Of a stretch of 64,000 nt of DNA, positions 4,695 to 18,859 are shown one piece after another. The DNA comes from an uncultured virus (IMG/VR IMGVR_UViG_3300032268_000759) (taxonomy: Duplodnaviria; Heunggongvirae; Uroviricota; Caudoviricetes). The notes under the pieces are model-generated. The model did no database searches. It worked only from the letters and a program-made list of their open reading frames with translations, and had not been told where the DNA came from. The stretch's first letter is position 1. Each line of letters begins with the position of its first letter. Made by a program: the position numbers and the translations under genes. The stretch is from the IMG/VR virus record IMGVR_UViG_3300032268_000759, positions 64,001-128,000 of that record; one strand, 5' to 3'.

Positions 4695-6008
4695 ATGAAT
4701 AAGAAAATTGTAATTGTAGGTAGTGGAGTAGCAGGTATTAGTGCTGCATTAAAATTAGTAGATAATAACTACCTAGGAGAGTTAATTACCATTATAGATA
4801 AAGGTAATGATCCTTATGTTCGTAAACCAGAAGAAGTAATGACAGGATTCGCTGGGGCTGGAGGATTCTCAGATGGTAAACTTACTTATCATACTTCAAT
4901 TGGTGGTCAATTAAGTAAATATTGTGGTGAAGAAAAAGCTTATGATTTAATGGATCAATCTATTGAAATGTGGAAACGTTTCCACCCGGATCCATCTAAA
5001 ATAATGTACTCAAATCCACAATCTGAACCGGATTTTATTAAACCTCATTTTGGTCTTCGTTTATTCCCAGTTTACCATATTGGTACAGATTATTTACACG
5101 AAATAGGAAAAACATGGTATCAATATTTAGTTGATAAAGGTGTTAAATTTGAATGGAGAGCAGAAGTTAAAACTATAGATTTTAATAACAATACAATTAA
5201 AATTGTAAATGTAGATCATACTGAATTACAAGCGAGTATATCATATGATAAACTTGTATTCGCAGTAGGTAAATCAGGTATTGACTTTGGTAAAAAATTA
5301 GCTGATGAATATGAACTACCTACAGAAGCTAAATCAGTGCAAATAGGGGTCCGTTTTGAATCACCACAAAAATACTTTCAAAAATTAATTGATATTAGTT
5401 ATGATTTTAAATTATATCAAAAGTTTGATAATGTGTCATTACGTTCATTTTGTACTAATAATAACGCAGCTTATGTAGCGGTAGAAGAAACATATGGTGA
5501 TGTCACATATAATGGTCATGCTAAAAAAGGTGAAGAGTTTAGAAATGATATGACTAACTTTGGTATATTAATGGAAATTAAAGGTATTGAAAATCCATTT
5601 GAATGGTCACGTCATGTAGTAGGACAATTACAAGTTGATGGTAAAGGATTATATTACTCACCAAACAAAACACGTAAACCAGGTATAACATCAGAAGGAA
5701 CAATTGTATCAGCATATCAAATAGATGATTTAGAAGAATTTGATGAAGTATTAGGTGAATACGCAAATTATATTATTAATTTTATTGATAATATGGATGA
5801 AGTATTTGGATTTGGTGATGACTGGGGTATGTATTTACCAGAAGTAAAGTATCTATCACCTGAACCATTAGTAAATTATACTAACTTAGCATTAAATGAA
5901 TTTCCAAATGTATATTTTGTTGGAGATGCATTGAGTGCTCGTGGTATTACTGTTTCAGGAGCGCATGGGATATATGTTGCTGAATATTTATTATCAAATA
6001 ACAACTAA
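4695..6008 (+). CDS. NAD(P)/FAD-dependent oxidoreductase
   Basis: N-terminal Rossmann motif VIVGSGVAG, GAGGFSDGK and C-terminal YFVGD FAD motif. Confidence 0.85.
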   Translation: MNKKIVIVGSGVAGISAALKLVDNNYLGELITIIDKGNDPYVRKPEEVMTGFAGAGGFSDGKLTYHTSIGGQLSKYCGEEKAYDLMDQSIEMWKRFHPDPSKIMYSNPQSEPDFIKPHFGLRLFPVYHIGTDYLHEIGKTWYQYLVDKGVKFEWRAEVKTIDFNNNTIKIVNVDHTELQASISYDKLVFAVGKSGIDFGKKLADEYELPTEAKSVQIGVRFESPQKYFQKLIDISYDFKLYQKFDNVSLRSFCTNNNAAYVAVEETYGDVTYNGHAKKGEEFRNDMTNFGILMEIKGIENPFEWSRHVVGQLQVDGKGLYYSPNKTRKPGITSEGTIVSAYQIDDLEEFDEVLGEYANYIINFIDNMDEVFGFGDDWGMYLPEVKYLSPEPLVNYTNLALNEFPNVYFVGDALSARGITVSGAHGIYVAEYLLSNNN

Positions 6009-10359: not shown

Positions 10360-12240
10360 ATGGCAGATACCAACATATTTAATAGATTAAGACGATTATT
10401 TTCAACAGATGTTATCATTAGAAACACTGGAGGAAACGAATTACGAGTAGTGGATGTGAACGCTATTCAAAAATCAGGTGAAATAGAAACTAACTCATTA
10501 TTAGATAGATTCAATAGGATATATACAACAAGTCCTACCTCACTATATGGTTACCAACAAAACTTTAACTACCAAACACTACGTACTCAGTTATATTCAG
10601 AGTATGATGTTATGGATGGTGATGCTATTATTGCTTCAGCATTAGATATTATAGCAGATGAATCTACACTTAAAAATGAACAAGGTGAAGTACTTCATAT
10701 TAGATCAAGTGATGAAGATGTTCAAAAAATACTATATAATTTATTCTATGATGTATTAAATATAGAATTTAATTTATGGTCATGGATTCGCCAAATGTGT
10801 AAATATGGTGATTTCTTCTTAAAATTAGAAATAGCAGAAAAGTTTGGTGTATATAATGTTATACCATACTCTGCTTATCATATTGAAAGACAAGAACTAT
10901 ATGACCGTGAAAATCCATCATCAGTAAGATTTAGATTTGATCCAGAAGGTTTATCAGCGGGTGATTATGGTTACTATAACATGCCTGGTTCAAACCAAGG
11001 TAATTCTATTTATTTTGATAACTATGAAATAGCACATTTTCGCCTAATATCAGATACCAACTTTTTACCATATGGTAGAAGTTATATTGAGCCAGCTCGT
11101 AAGTTATTTAAACAATATGCATTAATGGAAGACGCGATGTTAATTCATCGTATTGTTCGCGCTCCTGAAAAACGTGTATTTTATATTAATGTAGGTGGAA
11201 TTGCACCAGCAGAAGTTGAAGCGTTCATGCAAAAAACTGTTAATACCATGAAACGTACTCCATATATGGATCCTAAAACTGGTGATTATAACTTAAAATA
11301 TAACATGCAAAACATGTTAGAAGATTTTTATATTCCAGTTCGTGGTAATGATCAAGCAACAAAAATTGATACTACTAAAGGATTAGATTATGATGGTATT
11401 AAAGACGTTGAATATTTACGTGATAAATTATTTGCTGCTTTAAAAGTACCAAAAGCGTTTATGGGTTATGAAAAAGACTTAACTGGTAAAGCAACTTTAG
11501 CAGCAGAGGATATTAGATTTGCTCGTACAATTGAGCGTATTCAACGTATCATATTATCAGAATTATATAAAATAGGATTAGTACATTTATATACTCAAGG
11601 TTATACTGAAGAGTCATTAACTAACTTTGAATTAAACTTAACAACTCCATCAATCATATATGATCAAGAACGTATTGCATTAATGAAAGAAAAAGTTGAA
11701 TTAGCTAATACTATAATGGAAGCACAATTATTACCATCAGATTGGGTTTATGATAATATATTCCACTTTAGTGATGATCAATATTCAGAATATAGAGATT
11801 TAATTCGTGAAGATGCTAAACGTAACTTTAGATTAACACAGATTAAAGAAGAAGGTAATGATCCATTAGAAACAGGTAAATCATATGGTACACCACACGA
11901 TTTAGCTTATTTATATGGTAATACTAAAACTCACGGGACTGTACCTGATGGGTATGATGAAAAAACACCACTAGGTCGTCCTAAAGAAAAAGCAAGTAGT
12001 ATAAACACACAAGACAATCCATTAGGAAGAGATAGATTAGGTGTTAATGATATGAAAGTTGATGACCAACCAACAGCAGGCCGTACAGCATTTAAAGGAG
12101 GATCAGCATTAGCTTTAGAAAATAACAAAACTGAATTTCATAAAAATAAAATTGTGTTAGAAGGTTTAAAAAAGAAATTAGTATTTGAAAATGATAAGGC
12201 AGCAGGTACATATCTAGATGAAAATCTACTTAAAGATTAA
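10360..12240 (+). CDS. Portal protein (T4 gp20-like)
   Basis: LMEDAMLIHRIVRAPEKRVFYINVG, EDFYIP.RG, ALKVPK; follows terminase. Confidence 0.95.
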   Translation: MADTNIFNRLRRLFSTDVIIRNTGGNELRVVDVNAIQKSGEIETNSLLDRFNRIYTTSPTSLYGYQQNFNYQTLRTQLYSEYDVMDGDAIIASALDIIADESTLKNEQGEVLHIRSSDEDVQKILYNLFYDVLNIEFNLWSWIRQMCKYGDFFLKLEIAEKFGVYNVIPYSAYHIERQELYDRENPSSVRFRFDPEGLSAGDYGYYNMPGSNQGNSIYFDNYEIAHFRLISDTNFLPYGRSYIEPARKLFKQYALMEDAMLIHRIVRAPEKRVFYINVGGIAPAEVEAFMQKTVNTMKRTPYMDPKTGDYNLKYNMQNMLEDFYIPVRGNDQATKIDTTKGLDYDGIKDVEYLRDKLFAALKVPKAFMGYEKDLTGKATLAAEDIRFARTIERIQRIILSELYKIGLVHLYTQGYTEESLTNFELNLTTPSIIYDQERIALMKEKVELANTIMEAQLLPSDWVYDNIFHFSDDQYSEYRDLIREDAKRNFRLTQIKEEGNDPLETGKSYGTPHDLAYLYGNTKTHGTVPDGYDEKTPLGRPKEKASSINTQDNPLGRDRLGVNDMKVDDQPTAGRTAFKGGSALALENNKTEFHKNKIVLEGLKKKLVFENDKAAGTYLDENLLKD

Positions 12241-12277: not shown

Positions 12278-13135
12278 ATGAGTATTATCAAACATAATAA
12301 ATTCAAAAACTCAGGTATATTATTTGAATTGTTAGTTAGACAAATAACTAATGATACATTATCTGGGAAAGAATCTCCGGCTATTGATATTCTTAAAAAT
12401 AGCTTTGTTAAGTCAGAGTTAGGAAAAGAATATAAATTATATGAGACATTATTTAAGCAAACACAAATCAGCGAAACTAAAGCTAATATTATCATTGAAG
12501 AAGTATTAAAAGCATCTAAAAAACTTAATAGATCATCATTAAAAAGAGATAAATATAATCTAATTAATGAGATTAAAAAACATTATGATTTAGAAGAATT
12601 TTTTAAACATAAACTACCTAATTATAAATCTCAAGCTGCTCTATATACATTGATTGAAGTATATAATAATCAAGAAACAGTAAATCCTAATCAAGTTATA
12701 TCTAATAAAATTACATTATTAGAATCATTAACTAAACTCCCAGTTAAAGAAAAAGAGATTAGAGAAGATGTATTAAATGAATTTAAAACTTATGATAAAG
12801 ATTTACGTTTATTAACATACCAGGTATTATTAGAAAAATTTAATAATAAATATGGTTCATTAAATGATAATCAAAAATTAATATTACGTGAATTTATAAA
12901 TGCTGTTGATAATCCATCACGCTTAAAAGATTTCTACAACCAAAAAATAGTTGAAGTTAAAACTCAATTAACTAAGTCAATAGAAAAAATTAATGATAAA
13001 GTAACTCAGATTAAATTAACTGAAGTGTTATCATTAATTAATGAAGTAGATAAAACCTCTAAAGTGTCTAATGATGATGTAATTAATTTATTACAATATT
13101 ATTCATTAGTTGAAGAATTAAAGGCAGTAAAATAA
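12278..13135 (+). CDS. Head-module protein, function unknown
   Basis: 285-aa helical ORF between portal and protease. Confidence 0.7.
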   Translation: MSIIKHNKFKNSGILFELLVRQITNDTLSGKESPAIDILKNSFVKSELGKEYKLYETLFKQTQISETKANIIIEEVLKASKKLNRSSLKRDKYNLINEIKKHYDLEEFFKHKLPNYKSQAALYTLIEVYNNQETVNPNQVISNKITLLESLTKLPVKEKEIREDVLNEFKTYDKDLRLLTYQVLLEKFNNKYGSLNDNQKLILREFINAVDNPSRLKDFYNQKIVEVKTQLTKSIEKINDKVTQIKLTEVLSLINEVDKTSKVSNDDVINLLQYYSLVEELKAVK

Positions 13136-13767
13136 TGGATAGACTAAAAAACGCAGTTAAAAAGGTATTAAAAGAAATGTCTATGACTGGTGGTGGAACA
13201 GCAGGTGCTGCTTTCTCTCCTGGTGTAGGTATGAATTATGCTACTCCTAAAGCATTTAAAAAGAAAAAACTTAAAGAGGTTAGTGGCTATAAAGGAATTG
13301 ATGGCTCATTTGATACAGCTCTTCAATGGATTTGGTTTTTTGGTGGTAAAGAATTACTACAAAATAAATTAGAAATTTATAGTACAAGCCAAAACTACTT
13401 TAGATTTAAAAAAGCTATGGAAAATGGTAAAATTACTATCCAAGACTTAGATAAAGCTACAAAAGGAGAACATGGACAAACCGGTGGTATACCTTTTTCA
13501 CAAACAGCAGTTTGGACACAAGATATAAAACCATACTTAGATAGAGTTAAACAAGATAAAATTAATGATTTAAATATTGATTTAGAAGAAACTAAAACTC
13601 CATACGGTACAGGTAACTTAGGCCCAGGCCCAAAAGCAACAGAACAAGGTGTTAAAGATAATTACTATGTTAAAGCATTTGGTTTTAAACTTGTTGACAG
13701 AAAAAAATTAGCAAAAGCATCTAAAACAATAGATTATAAAGATCTATGGGGTGCTACATATAAATAA
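13135..13767 (+). CDS. Putative head-internal protein carrying a major-capsid N-arm-like peptide
   Basis: TGGGTAGAAFSPGVG versus capsid TGAGTAGAAFTAGVG. Confidence 0.6.
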   Translation: MDRLKNAVKKVLKEMSMTGGGTAGAAFSPGVGMNYATPKAFKKKKLKEVSGYKGIDGSFDTALQWIWFFGGKELLQNKLEIYSTSQNYFRFKKAMENGKITIQDLDKATKGEHGQTGGIPFSQTAVWTQDIKPYLDRVKQDKINDLNIDLEETKTPYGTGNLGPGPKATEQGVKDNYYVKAFGFKLVDRKKLAKASKTIDYKDLWGATYK

Positions 13768-13792: not shown

Positions 13793-15241
13793 ATGACACT
13801 TCAAGAACAATACAATCTAATTAAAGAAGGTAAAGGTGCTAAAGATGTATTTACAAAACATGCTAAAGCTTTATTTCCTCATTTAATTCCAAATCATTTT
13901 GGATTTGATAATACATCTCAAATCTTAACTCAACGTGGAATAATCTCAGAAAATCTTTGGGGTATAGCTACAGGTAATAATCAACAACCAGACTGGTTTA
14001 AAATATTTAATGAAGCTCAAGAAACTAATGTTAAAGCTGATGAAAAGAAACCATCTAAAGAAGTAGATGTATATAAAGATAAGTCATATCATAATCAATA
14101 TGAAGCTGAAACTGGTGATGATGTAATATTTGATCAATATCTAAGAGGTATTCAATTAGAAACAACTAATCCTAAAAATGCAGATAAAACTGTTGATGAA
14201 CTTAAAAAAATGGTATTAAAAAATCTTAAAAAAGATAAATTATACTACACTAAAAATGCTGCCTTTGGAATTGAAGGTATTGGCTACACAGATGAAGCAC
14301 CAGGTTTAGGTAAAACTAAAGAAGTAAAAGGTAAATATGCTTCATCGGGTATGGAACCAGTTAAAATAAAGGAATCATATGATTATGAAACACAAGCTGA
14401 TTTGACAGCAATGGCTAAAGATAGCGATATGTTGAAAGATGATCCTAAAGTAAAAAAAGCTGCGGAATTTATAGGAATGAATGCATCTGATGTTGATATG
14501 ATTGGTATATTAACAAACGCATATGTTAAAAAATATAATATTACTGACTCAGATCTAATATCTCATATAATAGATCAAGCATATAATATTTTTAAATCTA
14601 GATTTTCAAAAACAAATGAAGGTATTGGAATGTTTATGGATCCTATAGGATACGATAAAGGTTCTAAATCTCAAATGGAAAAAGCTCGTGATATATTAAA
14701 AGACGCAGGATTATCTAAGGAAGAAATAGAAACATTTATTAGTAATAATATGTTTAAAAAAGGAAGATTAGATGATTTAGCTCAAGAATTTATCAAAAGT
14801 AATTTAGAAGAATCAGAATTACGTTCAATACTTCGTCAAATTATTAAAGAAGAACTTAACTTAAAAGAAATTGATCAAATTGGTGAAGAAGCTTCAAAAA
14901 TGGCTAAAATTAAAAAAGTTAGTGATGAGATAACTAAACGTAAGAAAAAACTTAAAGCGTTAGAAACCTTAAAAGAACTTGAAGATGACTCAATCAACCC
15001 AGGTAAAATAAAAGAACTATATGGTGACGTTAAGAAACTGGAGAAGATGAAAGAAAAACTTGAGAAAAAAGGTAAGAAAAAAGAAAAAACAGAATTAGTT
15101 GATGAAGTAGTGGTGGTGAGTGATAAAACAACTCCTGAAGAAGTATCTTCAATAGTTAAAACAGGTGATACAACCATGGATGCTATAAAAGCTGCTGTAA
15201 TGCAAGCTAAAAAAACAAAACAACCAGTAACCGTATCATAA
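13793..15241 (+). CDS. Modular putative prohead core/internal protein
   Basis: 482 aa; many (I/L/F)-x-E sites; adjacent to the protease. Confidence 0.6.
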   Translation: MTLQEQYNLIKEGKGAKDVFTKHAKALFPHLIPNHFGFDNTSQILTQRGIISENLWGIATGNNQQPDWFKIFNEAQETNVKADEKKPSKEVDVYKDKSYHNQYEAETGDDVIFDQYLRGIQLETTNPKNADKTVDELKKMVLKNLKKDKLYYTKNAAFGIEGIGYTDEAPGLGKTKEVKGKYASSGMEPVKIKESYDYETQADLTAMAKDSDMLKDDPKVKKAAEFIGMNASDVDMIGILTNAYVKKYNITDSDLISHIIDQAYNIFKSRFSKTNEGIGMFMDPIGYDKGSKSQMEKARDILKDAGLSKEEIETFISNNMFKKGRLDDLAQEFIKSNLEESELRSILRQIIKEELNLKEIDQIGEEASKMAKIKKVSDEITKRKKKLKALETLKELEDDSINPGKIKELYGDVKKLEKMKEKLEKKGKKKEKTELVDEVVVVSDKTTPEEVSSIVKTGDTTMDAIKAAVMQAKKTKQPVTVS

Positions 15242-15242
15242 A

Positions 15243-15857
15243 ATGAAGCAGGTATTAATAGAAACCCAATTATTTCAAATATCTCCTAAACAATTAAGTG
15301 AAGGAGTTAAATCAACATCAGGTAATCCTATTGTTGAAGGAATATTAGCTACAGCTGAAGTAAAAAACGGTAATGGACGCTATTATAAAAGAGAATTATG
15401 GGAACGTGAAATAGACAAATACCTATCTAGTGTTAAAGAAAATAGAGCACTTGGTGAATTAGACCACCCAGAATCATCGATAATCAACCTTAAAAACGTG
15501 TCTCATAATATTAGAGGCTTATGGTGGGATGGTGATAAGGTAATGGGTAAAATCGAAATACTTCCAACTCCTTCAGGTAACATATTAAAAGCATTAATTG
15601 AAAACAACATTACTGTAGGTGTTTCATCACGTGGTATGGGTAGTTTAAAACAATTAGGTGAAACAATGGAAGTACAAGATGACTTTGAATTGTTATGCTG
15701 GGATTTTGTTTCAACTCCATCAAATCCAGGTTCATGGATGAAACCAATTAATGGAATGATGAATGAAGGATTAATATCAACATTAAATCCATATGCTAAA
15801 GTAAATTCTGTTATTACAGAAATATTATGTGCTAATGGATCTTGTCCAATATTTTAA
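15243..15857 (+). CDS. Prohead protease (T4 gp21-like)
   Basis: NGNGRYY, ALGELDHP, GVSSRGMGS, WDFVSTPS. Confidence 0.93.
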   Translation: MKQVLIETQLFQISPKQLSEGVKSTSGNPIVEGILATAEVKNGNGRYYKRELWEREIDKYLSSVKENRALGELDHPESSIINLKNVSHNIRGLWWDGDKVMGKIEILPTPSGNILKALIENNITVGVSSRGMGSLKQLGETMEVQDDFELLCWDFVSTPSNPGSWMKPINGMMNEGLISTLNPYAKVNSVITEILCANGSCPIF

Positions 15858-16054: not shown

Positions 16055-17152
16055 ATGACAAACAGAGATTTGTTAAAAGAGGCTATTGCCGATGCTAAAG
16101 CTATCAAGGATACTGCTATAGCAAACGCTAAATCTGCTTTAGAAGAATCTTTTACACCTCATTTGAAGTCTATGTTAGCTGCTAAAATCAATGAAATGGA
16201 CAACTTCTATGAAGAAGATGATACCATGGAAGAAGTAGAAACAGACTTAAATGAAATGAAAGATGAAGATGAAATGGATGAAGTAAAAAAAGAAACTTAT
16301 TCAGAAGCAACCGAAGAAATGGATGAAGAAATCAATTTAGACGAATTGCTAGCTGAGTTAGAATTAGAAGAAACTGTAACTGAAGCTAAAGAAGAAATGG
16401 AAGCTGAAGAAACAGAAGAAGAAGGTGAAGAAGAAGAAGGTGAAGAAGAAATTGATCTTGAAAACATGTCAGAAGAAGATTTGAAAAACTTTATTGAAAA
16501 CGTAATTGAAGATATGATCACAGATGGCGAAATTGAAGCTGGTGATGGTATGGAAGGCGAAGAAGAAGTTGAAGATGAAACTGAAGAAGAAATCAATATT
16601 GATGAAATCTTAGCTGAACTAAAAAGTGAAAAAGTTGAAGAAGAAATGAGTGCTGTAATGGGTGCTTCTGCAACTGCTGGATTAGCTGAACTAGCTAAAA
16701 TGTTTAAAAAAGGGCTTATTTCTCTTAATGACTTTTTAGAAAAAGTAGCAGCTGCATCAGCTCCAGGCTTTTCTAAAGGTATGAATGAAGAAGAAAAAAT
16801 GAAAGACGAGTTAAAAGAAGCATATGCAGTAGTAAAAACTTTACACTCAGAACTTAATGAAATCAATTTATTAAACGCTAAATTACTTTACACTAATAAG
16901 ATTTTCAAATCGAAAAACTTAACTGAAACTCAGAAAGTAAAAGTATTAACAGCATTTGATAAAGCTACTTCTAAAAAAGAAGCACAATTAGTTTATGAAA
17001 CTTTATTAGGAGGATTAAAATCAGAAACTAAATCTCCAATTAAAGAAAATTTAGGTAGAGCATCTAAATCAGCAGGTGTTTCCGTTAAAAATCCTATTGT
17101 AGAATCAAATGAAATGGTCAATAGATTCCAAAAATTAGCTGGTATTATTTAA
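16055..17152 (+). CDS. Prohead core scaffolding protein (T4 gp22-like role)
   Basis: Very acidic, helical, located between protease and major capsid genes; ends RFQKLAGII. Confidence 0.8.
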   Translation: MTNRDLLKEAIADAKAIKDTAIANAKSALEESFTPHLKSMLAAKINEMDNFYEEDDTMEEVETDLNEMKDEDEMDEVKKETYSEATEEMDEEINLDELLAELELEETVTEAKEEMEAEETEEEGEEEEGEEEIDLENMSEEDLKNFIENVIEDMITDGEIEAGDGMEGEEEVEDETEEEINIDEILAELKSEKVEEEMSAVMGASATAGLAELAKMFKKGLISLNDFLEKVAAASAPGFSKGMNEEEKMKDELKEAYAVVKTLHSELNEINLLNAKLLYTNKIFKSKNLTETQKVKVLTAFDKATSKKEAQLVYETLLGGLKSETKSPIKENLGRASKSAGVSVKNPIVESNEMVNRFQKLAGII

Positions 17153-17179: not shown

Positions 17180-18859
17180 ATGAACAACATTCAATCTCTA
17201 TTAGAAGGTGCTAATCCTTGGAAAGCGTTACAAACAGACGCTACCCGATTAGCAAACAAATGGGCTAAAACTGGCCTATTAGAAGGTTTAAAAACCGAAA
17301 CTGACAAAAACAATATGTCAATGATGCTTGAAAATCAAGCAAAACAATTAGTAATGGAATCATCACAAACTGGTGCTGGTACCGCAGGTGCTGCATTTAC
17401 AGCAGGTGTTGGTGAGCAGTGGGCAGGTGTAGCATTACCATTAGTACGTAAGGTATTTGGTCAAATCGCTGCGAAAGAATTCGTTAGTGTTCAACCAATG
17501 AATTTACCTTCAGGTCTAGTGTTCTTCTTAGATTTCCAATATGGAACAACTAAATCTCCATTTAGAGCAGCTGCTGGTGCAGGTTTCTACGGAACTGAAT
17601 CTATGTATGGTAATACCAATCCAGGAGAAACAGCTAATCCTAATGGTGGTTTATATGGTGCTGGTCGTTTCTCGTATTCAATCAACAACACTTCATCATT
17701 CTCATCTGCTACTGTAGCAACAGCTTCATGGTCAGATTTTAACTTTGATTCTAACTACTCAGCTTCAGTAGTTGCGGGTACTGGTACTCCAAACTGGAAA
17801 AAAGTAACTATTACTTTACCATCAAACACAGATTTTAATGGTGTACGTGCATTTACAGTAGTTTCACAATCAGGTTTCCAAGCTGCTGATATTCAAGCTG
17901 CTTACACAACTACAACTGGTACTGTATTCAGTGGTACAACTGGAACTGTTACTTTCTTAGTAACTGGTTCATTAACTGGTCAAGTTGCTACATTAGCAAA
18001 TGTAACTGCTTCATTCCAATTACAACCAACTGATCAATTACGTGGTGATTTTGAAGATGGTAACACTAGCTTAAATGCTACTAACAACCCAATCACAATC
18101 CCTGAAGTAAATGTTAAAATGAAGTCAGAGCCAATTGTTGCTAAGACTCGTAAGTTAAAAGCTGTATGGACTCCTGAGTTTGCACAAGATTTGAACGCTT
18201 ACCATGCATTAGATGCTGAAGCTGAATTAACTTCAATTATGAGTGAGTACATCTCATTAGAGATTGACTTAGAAATCATGGATATGTTGATTGAAAATGC
18301 TTCTGCAGGTACTGAGTACTGGTCAGCAATTAACAACCAACAATTTGATGGTAGTACATTTGTACAACAATCATCTACAACTGGTGGTTTCTACAATACT
18401 CAAGGTGGTTGGTTCCAAACTTTAGGAACTAAATTCCAAAAGTTAAGTAACAAAATCCATCAAAAGACTTTACGCGGTGGCGCTAACTTCTTAGTATGTT
18501 CTCCATCTGTAGCTACAATATTGGAATCAATTCCAGGATTTGCTGCTACTTCAAATGGTGATGCTGCTAAAATGAACTATGCTTTTGGTGTACAGAAAAT
18601 GGGTAGCTTAAACACTCAATACGAAGTTTACAAGAATCCATATATGCTTGAAAGTACCATCTTGATGGGCTTCAAAGGTAAGCAATTCTTGGAAACAGGA
18701 GCGGTATTTGCTCCATACATTCCGTTAATCATGACTCCATTAGTATACGATCCAGATACATTTACTCCACGTAAAGGTCTATTAACTCGTTATGCTAAGA
18801 AAATGGTTCGTCCTGAATTCTACGGTAAAGTATACGTAAGTGGTTTAAGTAGCATCTAA
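17180..18859 (+). CDS. Major capsid protein (T4 gp23-like)
   Basis: VQPMNLPSGLVF, AKTRKLKAVWTPEFAQDLNAYH, YIPL, PRKGLLTRY. Confidence 0.96.
   Translation: MNNIQSLLEGANPWKALQTDATRLANKWAKTGLLEGLKTETDKNNMSMMLENQAKQLVMESSQTGAGTAGAAFTAGVGEQWAGVALPLVRKVFGQIAAKEFVSVQPMNLPSGLVFFLDFQYGTTKSPFRAAAGAGFYGTESMYGNTNPGETANPNGGLYGAGRFSYSINNTSSFSSATVATASWSDFNFDSNYSASVVAGTGTPNWKKVTITLPSNTDFNGVRAFTVVSQSGFQAADIQAAYTTTTGTVFSGTTGTVTFLVTGSLTGQVATLANVTASFQLQPTDQLRGDFEDGNTSLNATNNPITIPEVNVKMKSEPIVAKTRKLKAVWTPEFAQDLNAYHALDAEAELTSIMSEYISLEIDLEIMDMLIENASAGTEYWSAINNQQFDGSTFVQQSSTTGGFYNTQGGWFQTLGTKFQKLSNKIHQKTLRGGANFLVCSPSVATILESIPGFAATSNGDAAKMNYAFGVQKMGSLNTQYEVYKNPYMLESTILMGFKGKQFLETGAVFAPYIPLIMTPLVYDPDTFTPRKGLLTRYAKKMVRPEFYGKVYVSGLSSI

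Follow-up and report, generated by a model that had tools for sequence, protein, structure and literature searches.

A copy of the capsid protein's own docking segment in a small head gene of T4-like phages suggests an undescribed head peptide

It is still poorly understood how the minor proteins of large phage heads reach their places, and a review of T4 called the localisation mechanisms of its core proteins 'mysterious' (PMC9958956). The locus analysed here raises this question in a form that can be read in the DNA: why does a small gene lying among the head genes of an uncultured T4-like phage repeat, directly after a glutamate, the residues that follow the predicted maturation glutamate of the major capsid protein (MCP)? 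The window, that is, the whole stretch of 64,000 nucleotides that was analysed, corresponds to bases 64001-128000 of a virus record that is complete at 154,840 bp and has direct terminal repeats. Pfam and PHROG scans revealed a T4-type head module at 10-19 kb of the window (Table 1), and no match was obtained in these scans for the small ORF, whose start overlaps the stop of the upstream ORF, or for its two neighbours of unknown family. The complete 154.8-kb genome carries a single Gp23-family gene and therefore no gp24-type vertex paralogue; its pentons are presumably made of MCP or of some unrecognised protein. Among cultured phages, the Flavobacterium 'immuto' myophages come closest, with an MCP identity of 56%.

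Table 1. Features of the head module, in window coordinates
Feature	Position	Strand	Basis or remark
Portal	10360-12240		Portal_T4, E = 7e-67
ORF without family match	12278-13135		285 aa, directly 3' of the portal gene
Small modular head protein	13135..13767	+	210 aa; between portal and prohead protease genes
Leader, aa 1-14, MDRLKNAVKKVLKE	13135..13176	+	Ends in predicted protease site L12-K13-E14
Copy of the predicted MCP mature N-terminus, aa 15-34	13177..13236	+	Core = 13177-13230
YATPKAF and basic tail KKKKLKE, aa 35-48	13237..13278	+	Second predicted site L46-K47-E48
Middle cassette, aa 49-152	13279..13590	+	Flanked by L46-K47-E48 and L150-E151-E152
C-terminal core module, aa 153-210	13591..13764	+	GPGPKA..NYYVKAFGFK.V..KK..K..IDYKDLW
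ORF without family match	13793-15241		
Prohead protease, T4 gp21-like	15243..15857	+	Peptidase_S77 PF03420 E = 1e-30; PHROG 207 E = 2e-56
Acidic scaffold-like ORF	16055-17152		
Major capsid protein (MCP), Gp23 family	17180..18859	+	PF07068 E = 3e-77; aligned to T4 gp23* chains
MCP aa 51-83, segment homologous to the small protein	17330..17428	+	hhalign boundaries

The ORF directly 3' of the portal gene is kept at the same position in Flavobacterium phage immuto (gp197) and in Microcystis phage Mel-JY01, and looks like a conserved head-module gene. The scaffold-like proteins (16055-17152 in the window, L095:6725-7966 and L096:6869-7969) share a conserved terminal peptide, their tails reading ..RFQKLAGII in the window, ..RWQKLAGIIK in immuto and ..RMKKLAGIVK in Mel-JY01, and the remainder of these proteins is acidic and variable. 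Mel-JY01 (L096, PP395634) carries at 5182-5409 a gene for ribosomal protein S21 within the head module, between protease and scaffold, and its head genes cluster with the Flavobacterium-phage-like clade (MCP identity 49.5%).

The similarity that raises the question lies in codons 15-32 of the small ORF (13177-13230), which encode MSMTGGGTAGAAFSPGVG, and in codons 61-78 of the MCP gene (17360-17413), which encode SSQTGAGTAGAAFTAGVG. Both segments begin directly after the Glu of an [LV]-x-E context, and in the same register after this Glu 13 of the 18 residues are identical, with 12 of 15 in the core; the coordinates and sequences given by the sequence-only reading, which had first drawn attention to this match, proved exact. 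Ungapped BLASTP detected a similarity of 18/33 that includes the pre-Glu helix, and its composition-adjusted score was low (E = 15) because the match is rich in Gly and Ala. Shuffling was more discriminating: the best 18-mer reached a BLOSUM score of 65 against 28.8 ± 3.8 in 1000 shuffles (maximum 52), and when the 18-mer itself was shuffled 100,000 times, never more than 11 identities were obtained. The motif occurs at two places only, both in the six-frame translation of the window and in the whole genome, and a HMMER search over the complete 154.8-kb genome returned the MCP as the sole second match to the small protein (E = 1.3e-5). The comparison by hhalign of a minimal small-protein profile with a profile of the MCP N-terminus gave a probability of 95% (E = 3.5e-8) over exactly 33 columns, corresponding to MCP aa 51-83 and beginning 9 residues before the Glu. 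A partial duplication of the MCP gene was considered by seeking homology beyond the motif, and was rejected, the hhalign homology ending at YAT/WAG. Among the 13 identical residues, 7 have identical codons, against 7.2 expected from codon usage, so that the earlier remark on differing synonymous positions holds.

In the MCP, residues 51-83 comprise the end of the propeptide helix, the predicted cleavage site V58-M59-E60 and the counterpart of the T4 N-fist (aa 61-80, SSQTGAGTAGAAFTAGVGEQ), up to W81-A82-G83. The HMMER alignment places MCP residue 70 opposite residue 15 of mature T4 gp23*, and the copied post-Glu part would therefore correspond to T4 residues 66-91. This alignment, together with the ENQAKQLVxE context, which was invariant in 26 relatives, supports the proposed correspondence between Glu60 and T4 Glu65, with a margin of a few residues. 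In T4, the N-fist (gp23* residues 66-91) is a docking element of the mature lattice (PMC7136217, PMC9958956), a discrete stretch of 25 residues that contacts four subunits of two capsomers (PMC9958956, PMC9546572, PMC7136217). Before expansion, the N-terminal region of gp23* is internal and disordered and has been proposed to contact the scaffolding core, and the head-length mutation A66D falls on the first mature residue of gp23* (PMC9546572). The N-fist is externalised on expansion, remains disordered until docked, helps to form the Soc binding site, and stays disordered or unpaired in the five portal-facing subunits (PMC9546572, PMC9958956, PMC7136217). In at least 75 relatives of the phage studied here, the corresponding MCP segment is hypervariable and 17-25 aa long, and lies between invariant ENQAKQLVxE and W[AS]G[VI]ALP blocks. 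In the segment at 17360-17419 of the window and in the MCPs of L001-L092, the ten preceding residues and the following WAGVALPLVRKVF block are nearly invariant.

Relatives were gathered in two ways: ten loci were baited with the small protein, and the best 80 of at least 596 confirmed IMG/VR stretches were baited with the MCP. Similarity in relatives, which the sequence-only reading had made decisive for itself, is present. About 32 of the 75 loci with enough upstream DNA carry their own version of the copy, in an ORF located 3.3-5.2 kb upstream of the MCP gene. The copy always starts immediately behind [LIVM]-x-E, and a conserved Y-A-T-P-x-A-F block and a basic stretch come after it. For example, the MCP segment QSSTQTGGDAFAGGVGAQ of L072 is paired with QSSTATGGDAFAGGEGAQ in its small protein; in L081 the pair is ASATNQGGGTFTAGQGEQ and SATNQGGASFTPGQG, with TNQGG in both, and in L075 it is TSTTGGGAGAGNFSPGTGAQ in the MCP and STTGGGAGAASFSSGTGAQ in the small protein. 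The remaining loci have either a short form (E|MSTSGGAGA-YLTPYAF) with little mimicry or no detectable module; about half of the relatives have only the short form, as do the immuto and Mel-JY01 isolates, and some 20 loci count as having none under a detection that is imperfect and includes some failures (e.g. L007, L065). The long form was found on several deep branches of the MCP tree, and at least 4 changes between forms are forced by well-supported branches. The copy is thus widespread among the T4-like phages of this large clade, to which Flavobacterium phages are the nearest relatives in culture.

The two peptides were found to co-vary across related phages, which was the test that the sequence-only reading had proposed. 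The local alignment of an MCP segment with the small protein of its own genome scored 42.1 on average, against 32.2 with those of other genomes (46 unique pairs), and 0 of 20,000 permutations reached the observed value; own pairs beat cross pairs with z of 7-9 overall. When only the long-form class was considered (23 loci, unique motifs), the scores were 55.8 and 41.1 (z = 7.1), and the difference survived double-centring. Motif lengths were equal in 19 of 28 cases, including pairs of 17/17, 18/18 and 21/21 residues. Moreover, a partial Mantel test of MCP-motif against small-motif distance, with MCP-body distance controlled, gave r = 0.28 (P = 0.0002). Since the loci are related, the permutation P-values overstate independence, and the data amount to roughly 8-10 independent lineage-specific matches. 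In nearest-neighbour comparisons, diverged pairs favoured their own partner by +24 to +60 and close relatives tied; a sign test over sister pairs was not significant (6 vs 3, P = 0.25) because close relatives have the same motifs, and the signed-rank test gave P = 0.04.

The source of the match was addressed at the level of codons. Among 386 aligned identical residues in the relatives, 197 have the same codon in both genes, against 212 expected from MCP codon usage, and no lineage stands out. Recent gene conversion was therefore ruled out by the lack of any excess of codon identity. Within clades, more synonymous codon differences than amino-acid changes were counted, at 50:36 and 132:92 in the small-protein copy and at 76:8 and 121:75 in the MCP segment, so that purifying selection acts on both. 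The match is kept at the protein level by selection and not by recent DNA exchange, as the sequence-only reading had supposed from the differing codons of a single genome. The small-protein copy is most likely a selected, functional mimic of the neo-N-terminus of the MCP.

The remainder of the small protein is modular. Its leader is a predicted helix (residues 2-15, AF2), which the profile comparison places opposite MCP aa 51-60, and Glu14 was invariant in 30 of 30 aligned proteins. The N-fist copy is predicted to be disordered in isolation (AF2, low confidence). The Y-x-T-x-x-A-F anchor behind it is conserved in long and short forms alike (52 loci), and in several relatives (L015; P0022, P0030, P0033) the protein stops right after the YATPKAF/basic block. 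In the C-terminal core module, G172, K185, V187 and K202 are invariant and Y178, K180, G183 and L204 nearly so, and this module is kept in Flavobacterium phage immuto gp198 and in minimal forms of about 70 aa, which consist of leader, Gly-rich segment, YxTxxAF, basic linker, NYYYKLG[FWY]K.V and KDLW. Two tandem NYYYKLGYK-type units behind one GPGPKA block were seen after the N-fist copy in L017:3729-4136 and L018:3597-4004, which points to a duplication inside the core module. The three canonical L-x-E sites, at E14, E48 and E152, coincide with module boundaries, and relatives were found on at least 10 viral contigs, with 126 library matches that hit three modules independently; the module also occurs internally or C-terminally in other proteins. 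The AF2 model as a whole (helical leader, disordered aa 16-57, helical cassette) is of low confidence throughout, with a pLDDT of 50.7.

The middle cassette was matched independently by library proteins and is predicted to be helical, with moderate to low confidence (AF2). Most relatives, among them L008 and L013, lack it, and in L004, L005 and L007 it stands in a different setting; it looks like an optional, excisable insertion. The suggestion that the copy serves to anchor this middle module inside the shell is accordingly unlikely, the cassette being bounded by L-x-E sites, absent from most relatives and placed elsewhere in other contexts. A weak match of the cassette to L-lactate dehydrogenase with a GEHG motif (4m1q 151-230, E = 0.0056) may be due to chance; besides it, a search of PDB sequences returned only a low-complexity match to ATP synthase subunit c. 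In the ESM Atlas, only viral clusters below a reliable score were obtained, and a tblastn search of cultured phage genomes with the small protein found nothing at E = 1e-3. The short-form orthologues of immuto and Mel-JY01 were located by synteny only, and the small protein is annotated as hypothetical in the nearest isolates.

Taken together with its position, this architecture indicates that the product of ORF 13135-13767 is probably a modular head protein processed by the prohead protease. The expectation that cleavage would expose the same N-terminal arm in both proteins is a reasonable one, given the conserved L/V-x-E in both copies and the S77 prohead protease gene nearby. The gp21-like protease would cut after Glu14 and, in the phage of the window, also after Glu48; the two cuts would release a free basic peptide of 34 aa (aa 15-48) whose N-terminus is the same as that of the mature MCP, and in most relatives the product would be a basic core protein of about 55 aa.

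Two sequences that are forced to stay alike most simply have a shared partner, which could be the MCP lattice, the protease or the scaffolding core. The lattice itself, with the peptide docking at the N-fist site, is the likeliest of these partners, at a little under an even chance. Occupation of N-arm or N-fist sites, as the sequence-only reading had suggested, would be compatible with the unpaired state of the N-fist at the portal vertex of T4 (PMC7136217, PMC9958956). According to this proposal, the N-fist-like peptide would bind the N-fist receptor surface on the MCP lattice; docking would give it a fixed address in the shell, with the basic tail turned toward the DNA or the inner surface, and it would either fill N-fist sites that have no cis partner or sit there transiently before expansion. 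The lattice is favoured over the other two partners on the divergence of the motif. In an exploratory comparison of 23 related loci, MCP-motif divergence correlated with that of the MCP body and the middle region (rho 0.35-0.40) and of the small motif (0.40); over the same 23 related loci, equally exploratory, rho was 0.13 for the protease (partial 0.05) and 0.05 for the scaffold. The protease and scaffold genes sit between the two motif genes, yet the divergence of the motif is tracked by neither.

Several observations weigh against docking on the lattice. The docked N-fist of T4 is external, whereas a substrate of the protease starts inside the prohead, so that the peptide must share the N-fist's route out or use a pre-expansion site. 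About half of the relatives have only the short form, so that the protein can fulfil its core function without the full copy. Finally, a capsid built of MCP only offers few obviously vacant N-fist sites.

The protease could be the shared partner if the gp21-like enzyme used the 33-residue segment as an extended substrate or as a context for docking, either because the small protein has to be cut with the efficiency and timing of the MCP or because it competes as a pseudo-substrate and so sets the pace of MCP maturation. Such a role would account for the homology on both sides of the scissile bond, from 9 residues before the Glu, for the invariance of Glu14 and Glu60, and for the x-S-x-T/S-G that both proteins have after the Glu, in short-form phages too; regulation by head proteins also has a precedent in the T4 minor head protein inh, annotated as a protease inhibitor. 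However, L/I-x-E suffices for the T4 protease (PMC9026906), the other predicted sites of the small protein (LKE|VSG, LEE|TKT) lack the motif, and sequence-specific matching to about P20' is unexpected for a protease site. The motif is moreover hypervariable and lineage-matched and does not follow the divergence of the protease, and we consider this role unlikely.

The scaffolding core is a comparably doubtful partner. The copy would here serve to build the small protein into the prohead at MCP-type sites before cleavage and expansion, and the protein would be a determinant of shape or size analogous to T4 gp67/gp68. This agrees with the internal position and proposed core contact of the gp23* N-terminus before expansion and with A66D at the first mature residue (PMC9546572), as well as with the location of the gene between portal and protease, where T4 has the core genes 67 and 68. 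Against it, the copy ends before the N-arm helix, which is the target of the scaffold C-termini in 80alpha (PMC5644958); the near-zero correlation of motif with scaffold divergence, the lack of homology to gp67/gp68 and the lack of an N-fist copy in the T4 core proteins point the same way.

That the segments have no specific function, being relics of a partial duplication or ectopic conversion of Gly/Ala/Ser/Thr-rich linkers kept by composition, is very improbable. In its favour, both are of low complexity with a composition-adjusted BLASTP E of 15, an old conversion would be invisible at synonymous sites in lineages as diverged as these, and short-form phages manage without the copy. Against it, order-specific identity is far above that of same-composition shuffles, distinctive states such as GGDAFAGG stand in both copies, no lineage shows an excess of codon identity, the small-protein copy has more synonymous than non-synonymous changes, the long form persists on several deep branches, and the partial Mantel test gives P = 0.0002.

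Docking of the peptide on the MCP lattice therefore stays the reading to be developed, and one version of it goes further. The protease-released peptide might act as a trans-acting N-fist that enters receptor sites lacking a cis N-fist, where it would staple the lattice or tether the shell to the DNA; candidate sites would be, for example, the five hexamers round the portal, or MCP pentons in this genome without gp24. This version is speculative and, for the present, improbable; if true, it would mean that a hypervariable capsid segment co-evolves with a capsid-stabilising element of a new class. In any case, the locus offers a natural, sequence-defined case in which a docking element of the MCP was copied to a second protein, predicted to be processed by the protease, and kept matched across a large environmental clade. 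It gives a handle on the partners of the N-fist before and after expansion, on the cause of the hypervariability of the segment, and on whether lattices use copies of their own arms supplied in trans at symmetry-breaking sites. The copied segment could also be used as a naturally occurring tag by which peptides are directed to T4-type capsids.

No head protein with a co-varying copy of the MCP neo-N-terminus turned up in the literature searches, and the known systems each resemble the locus in part. The T4 gp23* N-fist is alike in its position between the maturation Glu, which it follows directly, and the conserved N-arm and VQPM block, in its length (25-26 residues in T4, 17-25 here) and in being disordered until docked (PMC9546572), as the copy is predicted to be here. 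It differs in showing no sequence similarity and in being present in T4 in cis on gp23 only, whereas here a second gene carries a copy; T4 gp67, gp68, gp22 and gp24 were compared with the N-fist and none contained a copy above shuffles, so that the arrangement is not a general T4 feature.

The core proteins of T4 and those carrying a capsid-targeting (CTS) leader, such as the packaged internal proteins IPI-III and Alt, provide a second parallel. They have a short N-terminal leader that ends in L/I-x-E and is removed by gp21, and gp67 and gp68 are cut into pieces (PMC9026906, PMC9958956). Similarly, the small protein is encoded beside head genes and has a leader ending in L-x-E, and in the T4 gene order 20-67-68-21-22-23 its ORF takes the position of the gp67/gp68 class, between portal and protease. 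None of the T4 proteins tested carries a segment derived from the MCP, however, and hhalign of the small-protein profile against T4 gp67 and gp68 gave probabilities below 0.1%. T4 gp24, too, is a relative of the MCP that forms part of the head, and the same protease cuts it near its N-terminus, as is predicted here, but it is a full HK97-fold paralogue of gp23, whereas the homology described here is limited to 33 residues, and the Pfam scan detected no Gp23 domain (PF07068) in the small ORF.

Mimicry of an assembly interface has been described for SaPI1, whose CpmB protein copies the C-terminal helix-and-hook of the phage 80alpha scaffolding protein and competes with it for one site on the capsid protein (PMC5644958). 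In both cases a second, small protein repeats a short peptide that a major head-assembly protein has at an assembly interface, the small protein described here being homologous to such a segment of the MCP (hhalign 95%). This would imply that original and copy bind the same site, to which the lineage-specific co-variation lends indirect support. In CpmB the peptide comes from the scaffold, is C-terminal, is encoded by a parasitic element and redirects capsid size; in the phage of the window it comes from the MCP of the same phage, stands behind a predicted protease site, and co-varies with a hypervariable original.
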